NCBI GenBank assembly: GCA_937975745.1 | Contig: CALJUK010000225.1 | Location: 1 to 52,115, forward strand | Source of the DNA: an uncultured Planctomycetaceae bacterium | Lineage (GTDB): Bacteria > Planctomycetota > Planctomycetia > Planctomycetales > Planctomycetaceae | Direction: 5' to 3' | DNA length: 52,115 nucleotides | Shown: one piece after another, positions 1-28,341 of the stretch | Layout: the number at the start of each line of letters is the position of its first letter | Position numbering within the stretch: the stretch's first letter is position 1 | Position numbers and translations under genes: made by a program | The notes under the pieces: generated by a model | Told to the model about the DNA's origin: nothing | The model's input: only the letters and a program-made list of their open reading frames with translations | The model's database searches: none

Positions 1-640
1 CTGTCCCCCAACCGGCTCCGCCCTGCCGTTCCTCTGGAAAGGTCAAGGCCCAGCCTGAAGGACCAAGTTCCGGAAAGCTCACCGAAACTACCGACCTGCC
101 TGAAAGAGCCACTCTCAGACCGTGTTCACACTATACAACCCCAGTTTCACTGACCACACGTCACCCGGCACAACGTCATATGTCAACCAAAAACAGACAC
201 ACGTGCGCAAATTCCTTGTTACCCGCCGGTGGAGAAACCACACCCAATCCGCCGAATTGGTGTACAACCTCGGGACGATTTGCCTCAATCTCCCCGGCTA
301 CGTTCACGTGATTGAATGTGTAGACTTATACGGTTGTGGTTGGTGGAAATTTTGGTGTACGTTCTCGGCGGGGTATGTAATTTACAATCTGGCGGCCGAT
401 GGTCCCTACCCCCACCCCCCTGCCCCCTCGGCGGGCATACATACGCACCAACATCGACGTAAACCCTTTCCAGAGAACCGCATATGCGAAATTTGCGGCG
501 CCAGTTTTTCGCTCGACGTACTCACAAGCATATACACGTCCGAGCGTCATGACCCATCGAATCCGCGACATCCGCGTTTTCGATACTGTTTGGGGCCTTG
601 TTTCCCTCACCTTTCCCCCTGAGTGGCATGCATTGTGCTA

Positions 641-4405: not shown

Positions 4406-4426
4406 CTGGAGCCTCCCTCGATAGTG
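4406..4426 (+). promoter_or_regulatory. bipartite promoter-like motif (copy B)
   Basis: CTGGAGCCTCCCTCGATAGTG, 2 nt after the stop at 4402-4404. Followed by a nested hairpin and CACCACACCACAACAACA (4467-4484). Confidence 0.55.
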
Positions 4427-6361: not shown

Positions 6362-6763
6362 ATGCAGTACACGCTGTTCTGGGAAACCATGCCAGAGCCC
6401 CAGAAGTCTCGCGTCCAGGAGTTTATGTCTTCTGGGAACGTCGTCGTCCCCACCGGATCGCGGATATACGCACCAGACGCTGTTACTGCGGACTCTGACT
6501 GGGACTTGGTGTTTCTCAAGGGAGCAACCACTCTCCCGCCCGAAACCAAGACAACAAGCGATGGATCGTCTTCCTGGACACTTCGTGATGGACCGGTGAA
6601 CTACATCCTGTGCAGCGTGCGCGAGTTCAAATCCTGGGTAAACGCCACGAAGCTCATGTTTCATGTTCCCCGCGGAGCGATCTTCAACAAGAACGACCGC
6701 GTGGCCATGTTCCGGAAACTCATGAGGGCCCCAATAGTCGCCGGCTGGAGCCGCCGTCGATAG
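6362..6763 (+). CDS. putative nucleotidyltransferase-fold protein
   Basis: Internal ATG of ORF 6248..6763. TGSRIYAPDAVTADSDWDLVF resembles the G-S...D-x-D minimal NTase signature. Confidence 0.35.
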   Translation: MQYTLFWETMPEPQKSRVQEFMSSGNVVVPTGSRIYAPDAVTADSDWDLVFLKGATTLPPETKTTSDGSSSWTLRDGPVNYILCSVREFKSWVNATKLMFHVPRGAIFNKNDRVAMFRKLMRAPIVAGWSRRR

Positions 6764-6765
6764 TC
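6745..6765 (+). promoter_or_regulatory. bipartite promoter-like motif (copy C)
   Basis: CTGGAGCCGCCGTCGATAGTC. It overlaps the last codons and TAG stop (6761-6763) of the upstream gene. Confidence 0.55.
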
Positions 6766-6818: not shown

Positions 6819-7691
6819 ATGTCTACAGAACTACTGGGTAACGTCGTTACCTGGACCGTCAGTTCGAGCGGGCTACCGCTCGGAACAATTCGTCAAGCCC
6901 TGGAAGACGCGGGACTTGACCCGGAAATCGCCAAGGAACTCAACGCGAGATCAACATTCTCTCGGGCTGCTCGACACCTCAAGGAGAATCGCACCATTGA
7001 TCGCGTTAACAACGCGTCCGATGACACTCTCACTTTTCAGTTCACCAAGAAGACTGACCGGGGTTCGTCGATCGAGTTCGACATGGAGTGCCTCGTTCAC
7101 CTCAACCTTGAAACTGGCGTCATTACATGTCGGGATTCATCCATCGAATCTGAAGCCCGTCTCAAGTTCACTGAGGTCAAGGACCTTCGCACGGCCAGCG
7201 ACATCACTCGCTTGGTTCAGAAGCTCTTCCGGGAGAACGCGGACCTGTTCCCAATCAACCCCAAACACGGCGGGGCTTACTTCGTTCCTGATCAGCACTC
7301 CACATTCACTGAACGGGTGCAAGACTTCATCTTCCGTGTTGGCGGCCAGCTTCACATGTTCCCCGTTCCCAAGGGGACCGAGCAGGGCAACCAGTCTGTT
7401 ATGAACTCCGTGGCTACCGGCTTGGAGTCACTACTCGTGGAGATGGATAAAGCAATCGAGGATTGGACATCCGACACTCGCCCGAGCACCGTCCAACGGG
7501 CTGTTGATAAGTTCCAGGAAATGAAGATCAAGGCGGACACCTACGCTAGTTACCTGGGAGCGCGACAAGACGAGATCGCTGAGAAGCTAAAGAAATCCGT
7601 GTCAGCACTCGTTACCCGATCCAATGACCTTGGACTTGCCAAGGACAATGAAAGCTCAACCAGCAAGGCTGGAGCCCCCGCCGATAGTTAG
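6819..7691 (+). CDS. hypothetical protein, first gene of the MoxR/VWA neighbourhood
   Basis: ORF 6807..7691. GGAG at 6809-6812 favours ATG6819. No motif recognised. Confidence 0.6.
   Translation: MSTELLGNVVTWTVSSSGLPLGTIRQALEDAGLDPEIAKELNARSTFSRAARHLKENRTIDRVNNASDDTLTFQFTKKTDRGSSIEFDMECLVHLNLETGVITCRDSSIESEARLKFTEVKDLRTASDITRLVQKLFRENADLFPINPKHGGAYFVPDQHSTFTERVQDFIFRVGGQLHMFPVPKGTEQGNQSVMNSVATGLESLLVEMDKAIEDWTSDTRPSTVQRAVDKFQEMKIKADTYASYLGARQDEIAEKLKKSVSALVTRSNDLGLAKDNESSTSKAGAPADS
7669..7689 (+). promoter_or_regulatory. bipartite promoter-like motif (copy D)
   Basis: CTGGAGCCCCCGCCGATAGTT, overlapping the 3' end of the upstream gene (stop 7689-7691). Confidence 0.55.
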
Positions 7692-7736: not shown

Positions 7737-8828
7737 ATGACAATCCGAGACAAATTCACCACCGTGCGAGACGAGATCAACACGTCTCTCATTGAACGCG
7801 AACCCGAAGTTGACGCAGCACTCGTTGCCATGCTGACCGGCGAACACTGCCTGTTCGTTGGCGACCCTGGCACAGCAAAGTCACTTCTCTCCGACACGCT
7901 CGTTCGCTGGATTAACGGCACCAGCTTTTCCTGTCAGCTCAACAAGTTCACGCAACCCGACGAACTGTTCGGACCCACCAGCGTGAACGGCCTTAAGGCT
8001 GACGAGTTCCGACGTATCACCGATGGCATGCTGCCCGAAGCTGACGTCGCCTACATCGACGAAATCTTCAAGGCATCTTCAGCCATTCTCAACACGATGC
8101 TTCAGGTGCTGAACGAGCGAAAGTTCAAGAACGGGAAAACCACACTCGACTGCCCCCTGAAACTGGCAATCGCAAGCTCCAACGAGTGGGCAACCGGCAA
8201 GGAGCTTGGTGCCCTCTTCGACCGCTTCCTGATTCGACGCGAGGTTAAGCCTGTCAGCACCCCTGATGGGATCAAGCGACTTGCATTCGATCACAACCTC
8301 GTCCCCGCCCTGAGTGACTCGCTGACTACGGTGGAACTTGAAGCCGCACAGGCCGAGGTTGCTTCTGTCACCTGGAAAGACACCGCCCAAGACGCCTTTC
8401 TGCAAATCTCACGACAGCTCACGACTGAGGGGATCAGGATCGGCGACCGACGACTTCGGAAGGCTGCCAACATCTGCCGTGCAACCGCTTGGATGGATGG
8501 AGAGGCTGAGGTCACAACCGAGCACTTCGGGATTCTCTCTGATGTCCTTTGGGGATCACCAGAAGACAGCAACACGAGCCGGCAAGTGATCGTCGATATC
8601 GCCAAGCCATCTTCGATGGTGTTCGCCACATCCCTGGCCCAAGCCAATGAGATCATGGGACAGATCGACGCAAGCGATGTGAAGTCCCTCGCCACTGCTG
8701 GTGGTAAACTCGATGCCCTGATTAAGGACGCGGCCAGCAAGCCCAACAGCGATAAGCTGGTCGGAAAACTCAAATCAATGGTTGCTCAACTTCAGGCTGA
8801 TGTCCTGAAGGCAACCGTCAACGTATAG
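7737..8828 (+). CDS. MoxR-family AAA+ ATPase (RavA-like)
   Basis: Walker A LFVGDPGTAKSL and Walker B VAYIDEIFKAS. The N-terminal layout (REPEVDAALVAMLTGEHCLFVG) resembles RavA. Confidence 0.8.
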   Translation: MTIRDKFTTVRDEINTSLIEREPEVDAALVAMLTGEHCLFVGDPGTAKSLLSDTLVRWINGTSFSCQLNKFTQPDELFGPTSVNGLKADEFRRITDGMLPEADVAYIDEIFKASSAILNTMLQVLNERKFKNGKTTLDCPLKLAIASSNEWATGKELGALFDRFLIRREVKPVSTPDGIKRLAFDHNLVPALSDSLTTVELEAAQAEVASVTWKDTAQDAFLQISRQLTTEGIRIGDRRLRKAANICRATAWMDGEAEVTTEHFGILSDVLWGSPEDSNTSRQVIVDIAKPSSMVFATSLAQANEIMGQIDASDVKSLATAGGKLDALIKDAASKPNSDKLVGKLKSMVAQLQADVLKATVNV

Positions 8829-8846
8829 AAGCCTGTTGTTGTGGTG

Positions 8847-8896
8847 GCGACTGGCGGGTGATGAGCATGACTCTCATCCCCGTCAGTCGCTTTTTT
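8847..8896 (+). terminator. strong rho-independent terminator
   Basis: 12-bp stem GCGACTGGCGGG (8847-8858) pairing with CCCGTCAGTCGC (8879-8890), one G-T pair, inner helix GATGAG/CTCATC, then T6 (8891-8896). Confidence 0.85.
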
Positions 8897-8921
8897 CACG
8901 CGCCAACCCAAGGAACTCACC

Positions 8922-10352
8922 ATGACAGACAAACCGGACACGCCATCCACCGATGAGTTGATGGCCCTCGGCAACCAACTTCAGTCGGCGATTGAATCCA
9001 ACCTTCAAGAGACTCCAGTTGATCTGGACATCACTCAGGATGCGGACACACCTGATGAGGAAGAACAGCCCCTGTCCAAGACCGCTCTTGAACTCGATGA
9101 CTGGTCAATGGCACGTGGGCGGTCCTGGCTCCACTCAGAGCACTGCCCACCATCACTGAAGGATGTTGCGGAACCAAGCACTCCGGCCACCTTCGCGGCC
9201 GACATGCTTGCTATGGCATTCGAGATGTCTCCGCAATTCGCTAAGAACCCTGAGAACTCACGCCTGTCCCACTTCCTCAAGACCCTCTCCAACACGCCAG
9301 CTTACAGGGCTATCCATGAACAGACGCAGTTGAAGCCGATCCCCAGCGAAATGGCCGCGTCATCGTTCGCCACTGAGTTCATCGCCCTCGCTAAACAAAC
9401 ATGCCCCAAGGATCAGCTTGAGCAGGACGCTCAAGCACTGTCGGCCGCTAACAAGGCACTCGACGCCGCCGGCAAGGATGTCGAGAACTACTCCAATTCC
9501 TGTCAGAGCTTGGGTGGTGACGGAAGCGATCGCTCGATGGGCATGTCGCCTGAGAAGGTTCGCGAGCTGTTCACAAGGATTCGCGAGAACAGTCAGCTTC
9601 GCAGGATCATGGAACTTGCTGGGCGATACCAACGCCTCGCTCGATCAATTCAAAACACCAAGCCAACTCACGGCCAAGATGAGGTTGTTGGAATTGAACT
9701 TGGAAACGACATCTCACGGATGCTTCCAGTTGAGCTTTCCAAGCTGTCCGACCCTTCGCTTGAAGACTCGTTCTATCAACGGTTCGCTGATGGACGGCTC
9801 TTTCAGTACGAACTCAGAGCGACTGCCAATGATGCTCGTGGACCGGTCGTTGTCGTTGTTGACGAATCCGGTTCCATGACCGGAGACCCTGTCGCCAACG
9901 CCAAAGCCTTCGCTCTCGCTATGGCCTGGATTGCTCGACACCAGAAACGATGGATTTGTCTCGTTGGGTTTGCCGGTGGAACCGAGGGAAACTACTTCGT
10001 TCAGCAGCCGGGAGAGTCCAATGTTGAAGGACTTATCAACTGGCTGGCGCACTTCTATAGCGGCGGAACATCCTGTGATGTCCCTCTCGTTGAGCTGCCG
10101 ACCAAATGGGGTGAGCTTGGATGCCCCAAGGGTCGCACCGACATCATCATGGTCACTGATGGCATCGTGAATGTGCCAGACGGCATCCGTGACGACTTCA
10201 ACAAGTGGCGTGCAGACACCGAGGCCAAGACCAATCTGATTGTGATTGGCCAATCGACACCCGGCGACATGAACAAGATCGCCGACAACGTCTACCTGCC
10301 TCAGCACTTCGGGCTTGAAGCCGAGGGAGTTGCCGAGTCACTCGCCGTCTAA
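8922..10352 (+). CDS. von Willebrand factor A domain protein (ViaA/CobT-like partner of the MoxR ATPase)
   Basis: C-terminal VWA domain with MIDAS VVVVVDESGSMTG. Acidic N-terminal stretch DADTPDEEEQ. Confidence 0.8.
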   Translation: MTDKPDTPSTDELMALGNQLQSAIESNLQETPVDLDITQDADTPDEEEQPLSKTALELDDWSMARGRSWLHSEHCPPSLKDVAEPSTPATFAADMLAMAFEMSPQFAKNPENSRLSHFLKTLSNTPAYRAIHEQTQLKPIPSEMAASSFATEFIALAKQTCPKDQLEQDAQALSAANKALDAAGKDVENYSNSCQSLGGDGSDRSMGMSPEKVRELFTRIRENSQLRRIMELAGRYQRLARSIQNTKPTHGQDEVVGIELGNDISRMLPVELSKLSDPSLEDSFYQRFADGRLFQYELRATANDARGPVVVVVDESGSMTGDPVANAKAFALAMAWIARHQKRWICLVGFAGGTEGNYFVQQPGESNVEGLINWLAHFYSGGTSCDVPLVELPTKWGELGCPKGRTDIIMVTDGIVNVPDGIRDDFNKWRADTEAKTNLIVIGQSTPGDMNKIADNVYLPQHFGLEAEGVAESLAV

Positions 10353-10403
10353 GCCTGATGAGTCCGTAGGGACGAAACGCGGTCACTCGGCCGCGTCGCT
10401 TAG
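10349..10403 (+). ncRNA. type I hammerhead self-cleaving ribozyme
   Basis: CTAAGC-CTGATGA-GTCC(GTAG)GGAC-GAAA-CGCGG(TCACTCGG)CCGCG-TC^GCTTAG. Full catalytic core and three helices. Predicted cleavage is after C10397. Confidence 0.85.
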
Positions 10404-10427
10404 CACCACAACACTACGAGGTAACCC

Positions 10428-10760
10428 ATGCCGAAAAAACCAAACTCCCCAACGATTCCCCGCTACACAGACGGGGTCCCTGTCACTATCCCGCCTCGTG
10501 AGGCTGAATGCTTCCGATACTGCGGGGATGGGCTGACGACTTGGGAAATGGCTCGAATCATGAATGTCAAGGAGAAGACCATCGCGTCATTCAAGGCTCG
10601 CCTTAAGGATAGGCTAGACCTCGAATCCACAGCAAAAATGATCCACTACGCAACCTTGTATTTTCACCTGGAATGTGACAATGCCCAACGTTCTCTACGG
10701 AAGATTATCGAAACTGCCTCGCCGAACACTTCAGTCCCACGCTCGGAGCAATCAACTTGA
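10428..10760 (+). CDS. LuxR/GerE-type HTH transcription regulator
   Basis: PPREAECFRYCGDGLTTWEMARIMNVKEKTIASFKARLKDRL. Confidence 0.7.
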   Translation: MPKKPNSPTIPRYTDGVPVTIPPREAECFRYCGDGLTTWEMARIMNVKEKTIASFKARLKDRLDLESTAKMIHYATLYFHLECDNAQRSLRKIIETASPNTSVPRSEQST

Positions 10761-10901
10761 GCGTGATGACTCCGGAAAAGCCCTCTACATGCACACCCGA
10801 AAGTGCATGAGGGAACACAACGGCGCATGCCGGTTTTCCTGCAATGAACCCAAGGGTGGTTTCGTAGCTAGCGACATCAACGATGTGGAGGCCGACAAAC
10901 A

Positions 10902-11048
10902 ATGAGGTACAAGATCGAAGAACGAAGCTGGGACGGAGAAACCTACCTAGTCGTCGTCGACACGGAACGTGAGAACGAAAGCGATCCCTACATTCTTTGT
11001 CAGCAGCCGCTTGAATTCTACGCCTACCCGGAGGGGGGCATTTATTGA
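10902..11048 (+). CDS. small hypothetical protein (48 aa, below the ORF-track cutoff)
   Basis: Hand translation: MRYKIEERSWDGETYLVVVDTERENESDPYILCQQPLEFYAYPEGGIY. The ATG overlaps the stop of ORF 10675..10905 (ATGA). Confidence 0.25.
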   Translation: MRYKIEERSWDGETYLVVVDTERENESDPYILCQQPLEFYAYPEGGIY

Positions 11049-17510: not shown

Positions 17511-18159
17511 CGCCTATCTTCCCTTCCTCAAGCTTGGATAAACGTGACTCCACCATTTTCAGGAAGAGGCGGGTCCTTCTACGGAAGTCACCTATCAAGT
17601 CCTCGTCGCGTTGGACGCGAATGATCGAGATTCGAGCCAGCTTCGGCATCCGGGGATCGAATGACACGAAGTCCCACCATGACCGACCAGTGACCCATAG
17701 AAGACCCTGTATCTGGTGCTCATAGTCACGAGGGACCGTGCCGTTGAGGGCGTAGTCAACATGGTTCTTTGAGTTGAACGGGCATTTGATCTCTACCCCG
17801 CCATCGTCGTCGATCAGGCCGTCTGGTGAACCGCCAACCCATTGTGAAAACTCTTCCTCGCAGTGCGGGAGAAACCCAACCTGATTCACAGTGGCTTCTC
17901 GGCGCCAGCAGTAAAGCGCTCTCGCTTCAGGCTCGTTCTCGTTGCCCCAATCGATGGCTTTGAAGTTGCCAATGCTCTCCTGGGGCTCATTCGTGAGCCG
18001 CTCGACGACGAGGTCATTCACATAGCCGAGGGCCACCTTACCCCACGGCTCCCTCCGCCCCTTCGCCATCACATCCGACATCCGACTGGCTGTCACCTTC
18101 CCCAGGCGGGCCTTGAACCACTCCGGTGTCCCCTGAATTACGTCCTGCGGCTCCATCAA
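17488..18159 (-). CDS. YqaJ/lambda-Exo-like PD-(D/E)xK exonuclease
   Basis: GTPEWFKARLGKVTASRMSDV and GGSPDGLIDDDGGVEIKCP. Confidence 0.8.
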   Translation of the reverse strand: MMEPQDVIQGTPEWFKARLGKVTASRMSDVMAKGRREPWGKVALGYVNDLVVERLTNEPQESIGNFKAIDWGNENEPEARALYCWRREATVNQVGFLPHCEEEFSQWVGGSPDGLIDDDGGVEIKCPFNSKNHVDYALNGTVPRDYEHQIQGLLWVTGRSWWDFVSFDPRMPKLARISIIRVQRDEDLIGDFRRRTRLFLKMVESRLSKLEEGKIGDERVAAT

Positions 18160-18702: not shown

Positions 18703-18723
18703 CACTATCGGGCGACACTCCAG
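18703..18723 (-). promoter_or_regulatory. bipartite promoter-like motif (copy F)
   Basis: Minus strand CTGGAGTGTCGCCCGATAGTG, then GAGGTCGGAGGTGACTAG-ATG(18685). Sits directly after terminator 18733-18770. Confidence 0.6.
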
Positions 18724-21241: not shown

Positions 21242-21313
21242 TTGCTCGGGCTGGATTCGCACCAGCGATCTTCAGGGTATGAACCTGACGAGATACTACT
21301 TCTCCACCGAGCG
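21242..21313 (-). tRNA. tRNA-Met (anticodon CAT), initiator-like, with non-canonical D and T loops
   Basis: Hand fold: CGCTCGG TG GAGA AGTAGTA TCTC G TCAGG TTCATAC CCTGA AGATC GCTGG TGCGAAT CCAGC CCGAGCA A. All four stems pair. Has C1xA72 and A11:T24. Confidence 0.6.
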
Positions 21314-22432: not shown

Positions 22433-22453
22433 CACTATCGAATCCAACTCCAG
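22433..22453 (-). promoter_or_regulatory. bipartite promoter-like motif (copy G)
   Basis: Minus strand CTGGAGTTGGATTCGATAGTG, 34 nt upstream of ATG22398. Confidence 0.55.
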
Positions 22454-24500: not shown

Positions 24501-24521
24501 CACTATCGGACGGCACTCCAG
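24501..24521 (-). promoter_or_regulatory. bipartite promoter-like motif (copy H)
   Basis: Minus strand CTGGAGTGCCGTCCGATAGTG. It nearly fills the gap between stop TAG (24525-24523) and ATG24495. Confidence 0.55.
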
Positions 24522-27500: not shown

Positions 27501-28341
27501 GTGCTGCGTCGAACAGACGAAACCCTGCATCGATCGGGCGAATCTCAGTGCCTGGAATGGCCGCGCGGCGGATTCCTGTGCCGATCTTGTCGAGGCGACG
27601 TGCTGCCGCCTGAGACTTTGCGCCCGTCCCCAGAACTGCTGACGGAGCAGAGAACGGGAGTCCTGCCCCAAACAGACCGCCGAGTTGCTCACCGCGGACT
27701 GCGTCCAGGGATGTTCCCATCTGCTGGGCGGCGGTGTGCGCCTTTGCTGTCGCCTGATCGCCACCATACTTGAGGAGATCGTCGAGCGTTGTGGAGAGCA
27801 TCGCCTCACGACGACCGATCTGATCAACCGGCTTGCCCGCCTTCTTCGCGGCCGCAAACACCGCATCATCAAGAAGCCCCGCTCGTTTGGCGACCTGACC
27901 AGCCTTTCCTACCGCCGACGCCCCCAAGGACAGGTATGTAAGCGGGTCGAGCCCCATTTCAATTCCGAGTCCACCCCAGAAGTTCCCGGTGGTGTCCCGC
28001 GAGCGTGCGAGGCCCATGTTGCGGGCAATGTCCCGCCCCGTCGTGCGCCCCTCGGATGAGAACCAGTTCCAGGGGAGAAGCTGATCGAGCGGGTTTCTGT
28101 CGCCGCGCCGGCCGCCTGAGAACAGATTGACCGTGTCACGAACCACGGAACCCGGCAAATCCAGAAAGTTCCCGACAGCTCCCGCCGTGTTAATTGCGCC
28201 ACTTCGTAGGCTCCCGACGAGAGATCGCTCTTCCTGGTCGCTCATCGGCTGTCGAGCTGGAGCCCGCCTCGATAGTGAGGCTGTCCGGCCAAGGAGCCTT
28301 GCCAGTTCTGGGTCAATCTGCGCAAGCACTTGCGACATCAC
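24523..28341 (-). CDS. very large virion-associated protein (internal/ejection or tape-measure-like; function unassigned)
   Basis: 1272-aa uninterrupted ORF at the distal end of the structural block. No catalytic motif recognised. Confidence 0.6.
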   Translation of the reverse strand: MMSQVLAQIDPELARLLGRTASLSRRAPARQPMSDQEERSLVGSLRSGAINTAGAVGNFLDLPGSVVRDTVNLFSGGRRGDRNPLDQLLPWNWFSSEGRTTGRDIARNMGLARSRDTTGNFWGGLGIEMGLDPLTYLSLGASAVGKAGQVAKRAGLLDDAVFAAAKKAGKPVDQIGRREAMLSTTLDDLLKYGGDQATAKAHTAAQQMGTSLDAVRGEQLGGLFGAGLPFSAPSAVLGTGAKSQAAARRLDKIGTGIRRAAIPGTEIRPIDAGFRLFDAALHGTKSALVQRFAKRSFDEKIAAMGDVQLEAVRLGNELKTAGVSDEAAGDLLRMMMEGVRPADVPSTVRAGIDETLKRTTPEQLQVMQKVANDARDLIKPMIEQGKAIGKKTGELTDDYIDYFPRFIAEALGHKPARDKAFISAADSSQIGRLDVFRDIPGGTIAAKEIARDPELAQVLARDGVKTEDVAKFLEAKHGSWLPDSYRMFKETPGGGGAGEWVRRETGRYKALAKRLGSYAPETLDSGIFGNHPLKDLNARLLASKNADVSIETLADVLSQPGVVKLRGDAIADARDTVQLMTLVKEVGLKWGKSDEAGGFGEYLFKKLGLTGDVTTGELGKAVVSREIANDVRQYMKQMTGSDELDEWLKIVDGVTNFGKGMWTSIWPAFHVRNRMSGLAWNFMKGITSRQAESMAGDYMKGRAVAGLRELPAIRDEWARRQAGGELVDEALAARVQDVASAPVGGSHSLSNETFPDLLIRRQDWAGRDVGAKGVQVPDALVVARVQSAVPGRGDFRRLHNTLAGTGKRVVVEEATPEFGAILDGMGYRKVGNSYVFDPADAPGLTDDMARRILGEMASADGILSRNNQATDVTATIAQTEKTAAKPGSLSEMLSSQVDVGDPAMRLGRVAQKASGLHPDTQLNPLKAQFRGVRGATESTWGPLAAGEEIGHYVEGRNRLAPYIELLRRGTARDEAAKLVGQAQVQYSNRYFTPFEQQIMKRLIPFWSFSSRMGKQVVSELAQRPGGPLGATIRTQRLAHQDAETAPDYVRDTASIPLGNILGQLPAGTDRYLAGFGMMHEDPLSFGPDARSAGLEVLSRMNPFVKGPLEYFTGQSFFQKSPSGGRPLEDLDPLVGRLLANVTGEKKAVQLPQWLETAVANSPAARALTTVRQLTDERKAIPGTRIPGPAALANILTGVRVSDISPGAKEAVIRELVREDMLSRGAGKFERLYFRPDDLAAMSPKERAEAQRLQDLLSLWSKRQKERRKAESK
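28257..28277 (+). promoter_or_regulatory. bipartite promoter-like motif (copy E)
   Basis: CTGGAGCCCGCCTCGATAGTG on the plus strand, antisense inside the first ~30 codons of the 1272-aa gene. Followed by a hairpin and ATG28360. Confidence 0.55.

Follow-up and report, generated by a model that had tools for sequence, protein, structure and literature searches.

Organization of the VWA/LuxR Junction

The window analysed here is a stretch of 52,115 nucleotides (nt), contig CALJUK010000225.1 of an uncultured Planctomycetaceae bacterium (assembly GCA_937975745.1). It encodes tail, tail-fibre and tail-spike proteins, which marks the contig as phage-like; no nucleotide match for positions 8900-11000 was found among the 50,697 deposited phage genomes of INPHARED. 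In this region, a MoxR-type ATPase gene, the gene of its partner (a vWA-domain protein, hereafter the VWA gene) and a small gene of the LuxR type follow each other on the plus strand. The junction of the last two is occupied by a 55-nt element that has the sequence, the order of parts and the predicted fold of a type I hammerhead ribozyme (Table 1). Its surroundings are those of the hammerheads known from phages: the element is intergenic, lies on the sense strand of a phage contig and has a small orphan gene downstream. It is the only hammerhead in this 52-kb contig (n = 1), and, hence, no cluster is present.

Table 1. Features of the VWA/LuxR junction and related features of the window (bp, base pairs; HTH, helix-turn-helix).
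Feature	Position	Strand	Remarks
Helix I, 5' strand, CUAAGC	10349-10354	+	Holds the VWA UAA stop codon, 10350-10352
Core C3-U4-G5-A6-U7-G8-A9, CUGAUGA	10355-10361	+	Direct reading
Helix II hairpin, GUCC-GUAG-GGAC	10362-10373	+	4-bp stem, loop GUAG, G10.1-C11.1 next to the core
Core G12-A13-A14 and A15.1, GAAA	10374-10377	+	A15.1 pairs with U16.1 at 10396
Helix III hairpin, 8 bp, ACGCGGUC/GGCCGCGU	10377-10396	+	Loop ACUC, 10385-10388
C17 and predicted scissile bond 10397/10398	10397-10398	+	Position from the hammerhead consensus
Helix I, 3' strand, GCUUAG	10398-10403	+	Would form the 5' end of the LuxR-type mRNA
CA-rich leader, CACCACAACAC	10404-10414	+	Common to five other plus-strand gene starts
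Shine-Dalgarno-like GAGG	10418-10421	+	6 nt ahead of the ATG, direct reading
LuxR/GerE-type HTH gene, 110 aa	10428-10760	+	PF00196, E 8.6e-11
VWA gene, 476-aa vWA-domain protein	8922-10352	+	Partner of the MoxR ATPase gene
MoxR-type AAA ATPase gene	7737-8828	+	Precedes the VWA gene
Intrinsic-terminator-like hairpin, 19 bp + U6	8847-8896	+	Between the MoxR and VWA genes; -41.6 kcal/mol, z -3.9
CTGGAG-N8-GATAGT copies	2273-2292, 2927-2946, 4406-4425, 6745-6764, 7669-7688, 28257-28276	+	Exact
CTGGAG-N8-GATAGT copies	18704-18723, 22434-22453, 24502-24521	-	Exact

Read directly from the plus strand, the element is composed of CTAAGC, CTGATGA, GTCC-GTAG-GGAC, GAAA, CGCGGTC-ACTC-GGCCGCG, T, C and GCTTAG. 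The core nucleotides defined for Rfam clan CL00010 are all present: C3-U4-G5-A6-N7-G8-A9 as CUGAUGA, G12-A13-A14 at 10374-10376, the pair A15.1-U16.1 as A10377-U10396 and, at position 17, a nucleotide other than G (C10397). The three helices contain 6 (+2), 4 and 8 bp without a single mismatch, and the pairs bordering the core are canonical (G10362-C10373, C10354-G10398 and A10377-U10396). Helix III runs from A10377-U10396 to C10384-G10389 and is closed by a 4-nt loop. Helix I is open and loops cap helices II and III, which is the type I topology; in the minimum free energy (MFE) fold, U10348-A10405 and G10347-C10406 add two pairs to helix I beyond a bulged C10404.

For a 73-nt segment, the MFE structure (-26.1 kcal/mol) coincides exactly with the hammerhead junction. 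When 91 nt are folded, the pair probabilities amount to 0.82-1.0 for the three helices, with helix II at 0.99-1.0, and in contexts of up to 250 nt the fold constrained to the hammerhead lies 0 to 2.3 kcal/mol above the global MFE. The predicted scissile bond is situated 45 nt downstream of the VWA stop codon, so the VWA open reading frame (ORF) would remain intact after cleavage.

The element was first noticed in a sequence-only reading of this DNA, with which the present analysis agrees base for base for stem I, the core, stem II, GAAA and C17, as well as for the TAA stop of the VWA ORF within stem I. Its assignment to type I is borne out by the topology, by the match of a type I covariance model and by the far weaker fold of the type III alternative. 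Stem III has to be revised: it was described as 6 bp with an 8-nt loop, but consists of 8 bp with the 4-nt loop ACUC. Hence, from the helix lengths originally given (6, 4 and 6 bp), the first two stand and the third becomes 8 bp.

Statistical Significance and an Independent Covariance Model

A strict descriptor (CUGANGA, capped helix II, GAAA, helix III closed by an A-U pair, a nucleotide 17 other than G, and helix I, all without mismatches) finds a single site in the window, the hammerhead at 10349-10403. As the motif is short and the window contains 47 CTGANGA heptamers, a chance resemblance without any meaning at the RNA level has to be considered. Among 1000 dinucleotide-preserving shuffles of the whole window, searched on both strands, 65 yielded a core in which each helix had 3 bp or more; the highest total was 15 bp. 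The real site has 18 helix bp, a total that none of the 1000 shuffles reaches.

A second line of evidence comes from a covariance model, R1, built from 53 distinct type I hammerheads of IMG/VR with the query sequence left out. R1 aligns in full length at 10347-10405 with 56.2 bits (E 3e-14), while the second-best site in the window, which is not a hammerhead, scores 14.4 bits. With both the shuffles and this E-value against it, chance resemblance is effectively excluded.

The pattern used to retrieve sequences from IMG/VR covered the core and helix II only (CTGATGAGTCC-N4-GGACGAAAC). Nevertheless, perfect in-register helices I and III accompany it in 103 of the 116 distinct occurrences (53 of type I and 50 of type III), and the combination of core and helix II thus appears nearly diagnostic for hammerheads.

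Related Type I Hammerheads in Viral Sequences

Many type I hammerheads built like the window element, with 6 bp in helix I, 4 bp in helix II and a loop closing helix III, are present in IMG/VR, and some contigs carry five to seven of them (e.g., loci L044, L054 and L078). Closest to the window element are members with the same helix II and an NNNG loop. In three contigs (L011, L071 and L225), the entire helix I, CUAAGC/GCUUAG, is the same as well, with a different helix III and different neighbours. Among the 25 type I relatives with an NNNG loop, which are not independent of each other, helix I measures 6 bp in 20. The two distal pairs of this helix are CU:AG in 23 of the 25 distinct members, whereas the inner pairs vary, which suggests a contact between helix I and loop II. 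At the level of the class, 12 of the 15 pairs change on both sides, in a set that was selected for pairing and therefore offers no independent proof.

A comparison with the IMG/VR relatives that carry helix II as GUCC-RNRG-GGAC (L011, L071, L225 and a group with helix I CUGUCU/AGACAG) reveals the same core, the same helix II and a helix I of 6 bp ending in CU:AG. Helix III, which covaries in these relatives, is 4-5 bp long, as opposed to 8 bp in the window element. Differences are also found downstream. The hammerheads of the A3 relatives are followed by a hairpin, GCCCAUUA...GAAUGGGACAAG, and those of the CUGUCU group by a tRNA-array context or a CAAGACUGUC hairpin; the window element is directly followed by the phage's own CA-rich leader.

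Several CUGUCU/AGACAG hammerheads lie in, or at the edge of, phage tRNA arrays (L019, 579-627; L116, 7451-7499; L048, 5351-5399; and L226, phage RiverRider). They share core, helix II and loop with the window element. The one of L019 starts 7 nt past a tRNA-Asp gene, and these hammerheads are followed by a conserved ACCTTGTGGTGTAG segment that is not called as a tRNA by ARAGORN. The group may have a role in the processing of tRNA arrays. Two more conserved elements were observed 3' of hammerheads of this subclass (in L015, L024, L034, L043, L077, L088 and L112, and in L011, L067 and L071). The first, CAAGACTGTCAATTTTGAAACTGAAAAGAA, could allow a 5' hairpin (GACAG/CUGUC) to form in the 3' cleavage product, and the second is itself a hairpin, GCCCATTA-N8-GTGAATGGGACAAG. 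Four loci (L100, L102, L229 and L237) were considered as candidates for trans-acting hammerheads, but are type I members of the CUGUCU group with an insertion of ~100 nt in helix III (ACAGAUGG...CCAUUUGU).

The position of the stop codon was compared among 88 distinct type I hammerheads in L003-L122, whose contexts are not independent of each other phylogenetically. In 70 of the 88, the ribozyme shares its strand with the longest upstream ORF, and in 64 with the longest downstream ORF. In 34 of these 70, the upstream ORF stops at -6 to +7 nt relative to the base at which helix I begins, often with a UAA contained in the helix itself, e.g., in GUGUAA or GUCUAA. Because of this frequency, a stop codon inside helix I is the usual arrangement and not a peculiarity of the VWA/LuxR locus.

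Promoter-like Motif, Leader and Terminator

The window contains nine exact copies of CTGGAG-N8-GATAGT, which face gene blocks on both strands; with up to two mismatches, 15 matches are found, versus 3.1 expected. The usual form is (G)GCTGGAG(Y)(S)NNNNC(Y)CGATAGT. The 8-nt spacing of the two hexamers is unlike that of a sigma-70 promoter, and it probably represents a promoter that is phage-specific or uses an alternative sigma factor.

A second repeated sequence is the CA-rich leader CACCACAACA, located on the plus strand at 1646, 2981, 4472, 6792/6795, 7711 and 10404. Every copy lies 24-28 nt ahead of a start codon, and six plus-strand starts are served in this way, including that of the LuxR gene. 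Extended to CACCACAACA(AC) and with up to one mismatch, the leader has 18 matches compared to 3.4 expected. It could act as a translational enhancer or as a binding site.

Four junctions, ahead of the starts 3009, 4495, 6807 and 7737, have the motif first, then a hairpin, the CA leader and the start. At the VWA/LuxR junction, a hammerhead is found instead of motif and hairpin, and the CA leader comes directly after it. Two claims of the sequence-only reading, that the LuxR gene shares its leader with other genes and that the ribozyme takes the slot of the promoter-like motif, hold in this comparison. The "early polycistron" that it assumed to be cut by the ribozyme is an assumption; a strong terminator separates the MoxR and VWA genes.

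The copy of the promoter-like motif nearest to the ribozyme on its upstream side is at 7669-7688, and none is present between the terminator at 8847-8896 and the ribozyme. RNA made from the 7669 site would have to pass this terminator before arriving at the ribozyme. Because this terminator intervenes, with no such motif after it, a transcript that reaches the ribozyme is probably a read-through product.

Immediately 5' of the terminator hairpin, at 8835-8847, the sequence GUUGUUGUGGUGG matches the CA leader exactly in reverse complement. An RNA ending at the MoxR/VWA terminator could, as far as complementarity goes, base-pair with CA leaders in cis or in trans.

Conservation of the Locus

A single-sequence protein search of IMG/VR returned no relatives of the VWA protein, and an alignment-based search led to 102 related VWA loci, taken with ~3 kb of flank on each side. 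vWA homologues with 35-51% identity are common on viral contigs, many of which measure 50-75 kb; one is labelled as coming from a Planctomycetaceae metagenome-assembled genome. In 100 related loci (496 kb), neither the descriptor nor R1 detected a hammerhead at the VWA 3' junction. Only one of them, L174, has a hammerhead at all: a type I element at 326-389 (+) with core CUGACGA, 5 bp in helix II and A17, which scores 22.7 bits with R1 and is located ~2.6 kb upstream of the vWA gene. The closest relative, L203, shows an ordinary intergenic hairpin at the VWA 3' junction and no hammerhead. The promoter-like motif and the CA leader are both absent from the related VWA loci as well.

The LuxR-type gene is likewise missing from the ~100 related VWA loci, and no homologue of its protein other than itself was identified in INPHARED, in IMG/VR or in a set of 5.8 billion proteins. 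As the LuxR protein is without homologue in the sets searched, the combination of hammerhead and LuxR gene was not encountered elsewhere either. In the GTDB genomes, searched for a host or prophage, two exact patterns gave no match. A search of INPHARED with a 64-nt element matched the hammerhead of phage RiverRider, in the core and helix II only; the remaining matches, in tape-measure genes of mycobacteriophages, are due to chance. Since both are missing from the related loci, the ribozyme and the downstream LuxR gene are specific to this lineage. Such a pair of lineage-specific ribozyme and orphan gene fits the pattern in the literature, where phage hammerheads stand beside small non-conserved ORFs (PMC3088659, PMC6155905).

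The same observations raise the question of whether an active ribozyme simply travels with its neighbour, as a moron-like cassette with the orphan LuxR gene or as a small selfish module, and plays no tuned part in how the flanking genes are expressed. The joint absence of both partners from ~100 loci, the lack of relatives of the LuxR protein and the association with non-conserved ORFs reported for other phage hammerheads are all expected for such a module. So are the near-identical modules, with the same helices I and II, a different helix III and other neighbours, in the unrelated viral contigs L011, L071 and L225. The element is, however, placed precisely between the upstream stop and the phage's own CA leader, at the normal distance of this leader from the start codon, and therefore looks integrated. 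Moreover, no second ribozyme was found beyond the LuxR gene, where the segment 10755-10905 folds unremarkably (z -0.61) and is matched by no model, and no repeat or other cassette boundary is present on that side. A mere passenger is for these reasons considered rather improbable.

Rfam Scores, the Type III Alignment and Points against Cleavage

At the Rfam gathering scores, a tRNA is the sole match in the whole window. This single tRNA gene (57.8 bits) occupies 21242-21313 on the minus strand, and the Rfam alignment suggests CAU in its anticodon loop. In the E-value mode, other ribozymes (twister, pistol, hatchet, etc.) were not detected in the window at E up to 1, and hammerhead matches were obtained below threshold. 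Hammerhead_1 (RF00163) aligns in full length at exactly 10349-10403 with E 1.4e-05, in a search restricted to 64 nt (10345-10408). RAGATH-1 (RF03152), which takes at least 56.3 bits and an additional conserved 5' domain (model positions 1-25), aligns over positions 26-77 only, with 21.3 bits. The best Rfam score belongs to the type III model, RF00008, at 10332-10383 (32.1 bits, E 0.0048 for the whole window).

This last alignment corresponds to a type III hammerhead with helix III GCCGAGU/ACGCGGU and cleavage after C10339, inside the VWA coding sequence. Although it has the highest score in Rfam, the alignment is circularly permuted and reuses the core and helix II, and the score originates from these shared parts. 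Its pairing includes non-canonical pairs, its helix III has a pair probability of 0.0, and helix I is missing, as segment 10340-10354 folds at 0.0 kcal/mol. The structure reaches -9.0 kcal/mol compared to -24.7 kcal/mol for type I, a deficit of 15.7 kcal/mol. Type III was rejected on these structural grounds, the lack of a viable helix I and the much weaker fold, and its probability is negligible.

Several points weigh against self-cleavage of a type I hammerhead at this site. Firstly, the Rfam scores remain below the gathering scores, with 27.7 bits versus 34 for RF00163 and 32.1 versus 48.5 for RF00008. Secondly, in folds of 250-450 nt, a segment of the upstream coding sequence (~10308-10320) competes with helices I and II at equilibrium, and the pair probabilities of these helices drop to 0.02-0.29. 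Thirdly, no tertiary contact between helix I and loop II could be assigned, and loop GUAG has no convincing pseudoknot partner; such a contact is needed for fast hammerhead cleavage at physiological Mg2+. Furthermore, this locus offers no orthologous conservation or covariation: its copies, one of which is in an ENA assembly (L001), are all identical. Finally, because of the terminator ahead of the VWA gene, it is uncertain how much transcript arrives at the ribozyme.

The weight of the first point can be estimated with a calibration set of 29 descriptor-perfect type I hammerheads in 13 viral loci (L003, L011, L020, L044, L054, L067, L071, L078, L079, L086, L088, L111 and L174). The gathering scores recover one of them (in L054, 36.1 bits) and miss the other 28. 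Since only 1/29 perfect phage controls passes, a sub-threshold Rfam score is uninformative for the window site. A covariance score below threshold, which the sequence-only reading had named as a refutation, was formally obtained with Rfam, but these controls deprive it of information. Routine annotation based on Rfam hence undercounts the type I hammerheads of phages and misses most of the class.

Regarding the competing fold, segment ~10308-10320 would be occupied by ribosomes. As for the tertiary contact, loop II (RNRG) and the CU:AG pairs at the distal end of helix I may, as a side possibility, form a helix I/loop II contact of an undescribed kind.

An inactive relic, or a purely structural RNA whose hairpins would block exonucleases or cause pausing at the 3' end of the VWA message without significant self-cleavage in vivo, would account for the missing tertiary contact, the competing folds in longer contexts and the low Rfam scores. 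It would also fit the open helix I of just 6 bp (plus 2) and a loop II, GUAG, that is not a classical interacting loop. Decay should, however, leave defects in the core or the stems, and all core positions agree with the consensus while helices I-III are free of mismatches. The same design of a 6-bp helix I and a 4-bp helix II recurs, moreover, in ~100 phage instances with covarying stems, and minimal hammerheads with this core are known to cleave in vitro. A relic is, therefore, regarded as unlikely, even more so than a passenger module.

Comparison with Known Hammerheads

Hundreds of bacterial hammerheads, near prophage genes and in clusters flanking genes, were described by Perreault et al. 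in 2011 (PMC3088659). In the same study, phage and prophage hammerheads cleaved polycistronic constructs of ~2 kb in vitro and in E. coli, and they were proposed to process long phage transcripts into operon- or gene-length mRNAs (PMC3088659). In haloviruses HF1/HF2, a hammerhead (HHphage) precedes the early helicase gene by 13 nt, and the 5' end of the transcript was mapped (PMC3088659). A review of 2017 by De la Pena confirms the persistent link between hammerheads and phages and notes the small non-conserved ORFs that they flank; what prokaryotic and phage hammerheads do biologically is, according to this review, still open (PMC6155905).

That hammerheads act at gene boundaries to process long transcripts of phages has, thus, been described since 2011 (PMC3088659), and the novelty that the sequence-only reading had attributed to the arrangement was overstated. 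The window element is a new unannotated example of a kind known in phages since that year.

Like the phage and prophage hammerheads of that study (such as the triple set around ardA in A. tumefaciens, and HHphage), it lies on the sense strand between genes, next to single genes or short variable blocks. In contrast to their clusters, a single ribozyme is found here, and its neighbours are a vWA gene and an orphan LuxR-type gene. The distance to the downstream gene differs also: 13 nt to the early-gene start for HHphage, compared to 30 nt between the predicted cleavage site and the ATG. The core of the window element is fully consensus, whereas HHphage, Bcep176 and PaP3 are variants.

An example in a cultured phage is provided by the Xanthomonas phage RiverRider (MG983743, Schitoviridae; L017/L226), which contains an unannotated type I hammerhead at ~17809-17858. 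As in the window element, it is intergenic and on the sense strand, helix I measures 6 bp and helix II is GUCC-NNNN-GGAC. It has A17 instead of C17, it is located upstream of a tRNA array and not of a protein gene, and the phage is unrelated. The type I hammerheads of satellites and Schistosoma (RF00163) have topology and core in common with the window element. However, that model expects 3 bp and a tiny loop in helix III and 6 nt in loop II, and the contact between a helix I bulge and loop II in its seed is not evident here.

Proposed Mechanism and Implications

The hammerhead motif is confirmed, and its interpretation is supported as far as sequence and class are concerned. The best explanation as a whole is that positions 10349-10403 (+) form a canonical type I hammerhead that self-cleaves at the VWA/LuxR boundary, and we consider this explanation likely. 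From the motif, its fold, its significance, its class membership and its genomic context, we infer cleavage, an architecture of the transcripts and effects on stability and translation.

Upon plus-strand transcription through the VWA gene, the 55-nt segment would fold co-transcriptionally into the three-helix junction and cleave itself between C10397 and G10398. Since the 5' strand of helix I holds the VWA stop, a ribosome terminating at this UAA would cover helix I and the core, and its release should precede folding and cleavage. Hammerhead cleavage yields a 5' product with a 2',3'-cyclic phosphate and a 3' product with a 5'-OH. The VWA mRNA would, accordingly to this chemistry, retain its stop and end in a compact structure (helices II and III) with a 2',3'-cyclic phosphate. 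The LuxR-type mRNA would begin with a 5'-OH on G10398 of a 30-nt leader that contains GCUUAG, CACCACAACAC and GAGG. In this way, the downstream gene would gain a defined 5' end like one made by a promoter, and its fate would be uncoupled from that of the upstream message.

A more far-reaching proposal is that the hammerhead is a functional stand-in for a promoter. It would replace the unit of motif and hairpin ahead of the CACCACAACA leader at one junction, and the LuxR leader would be formed only by self-cleavage of a transcript that has read through the terminator. This proposal is tentative and, at present, rather doubtful.

The finding adds one more unannotated hammerhead to the many known in phage genomes. 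What is mildly distinctive is the clean modular swap of a promoter-like unit for a ribozyme. The junction is also a clean test locus, as a single ribozyme abuts the upstream stop exactly and is directly followed by a leader that occurs in five other genes of this phage behind a promoter-like motif. A comparison of 5' ends made by the ribozyme with those made at the promoter-like sites could reveal what cleavage contributes to stability, translation or insulation from the terminator read-through transcript. Synthetic biology uses a related principle: in the insulator RiboJ, a hammerhead upstream of leader and ribosome-binding site gives a defined 5'-OH end whatever lies upstream. RiboJ is engineered from the type III sTRSV hammerhead, with an added hairpin, whereas the window element is natural and of type I. 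If the hammerhead does stand in for a promoter, it would be part of a circuit in which timing or dosage depends on read-through, and it would represent a natural counterpart of the synthetic ribozyme insulators.

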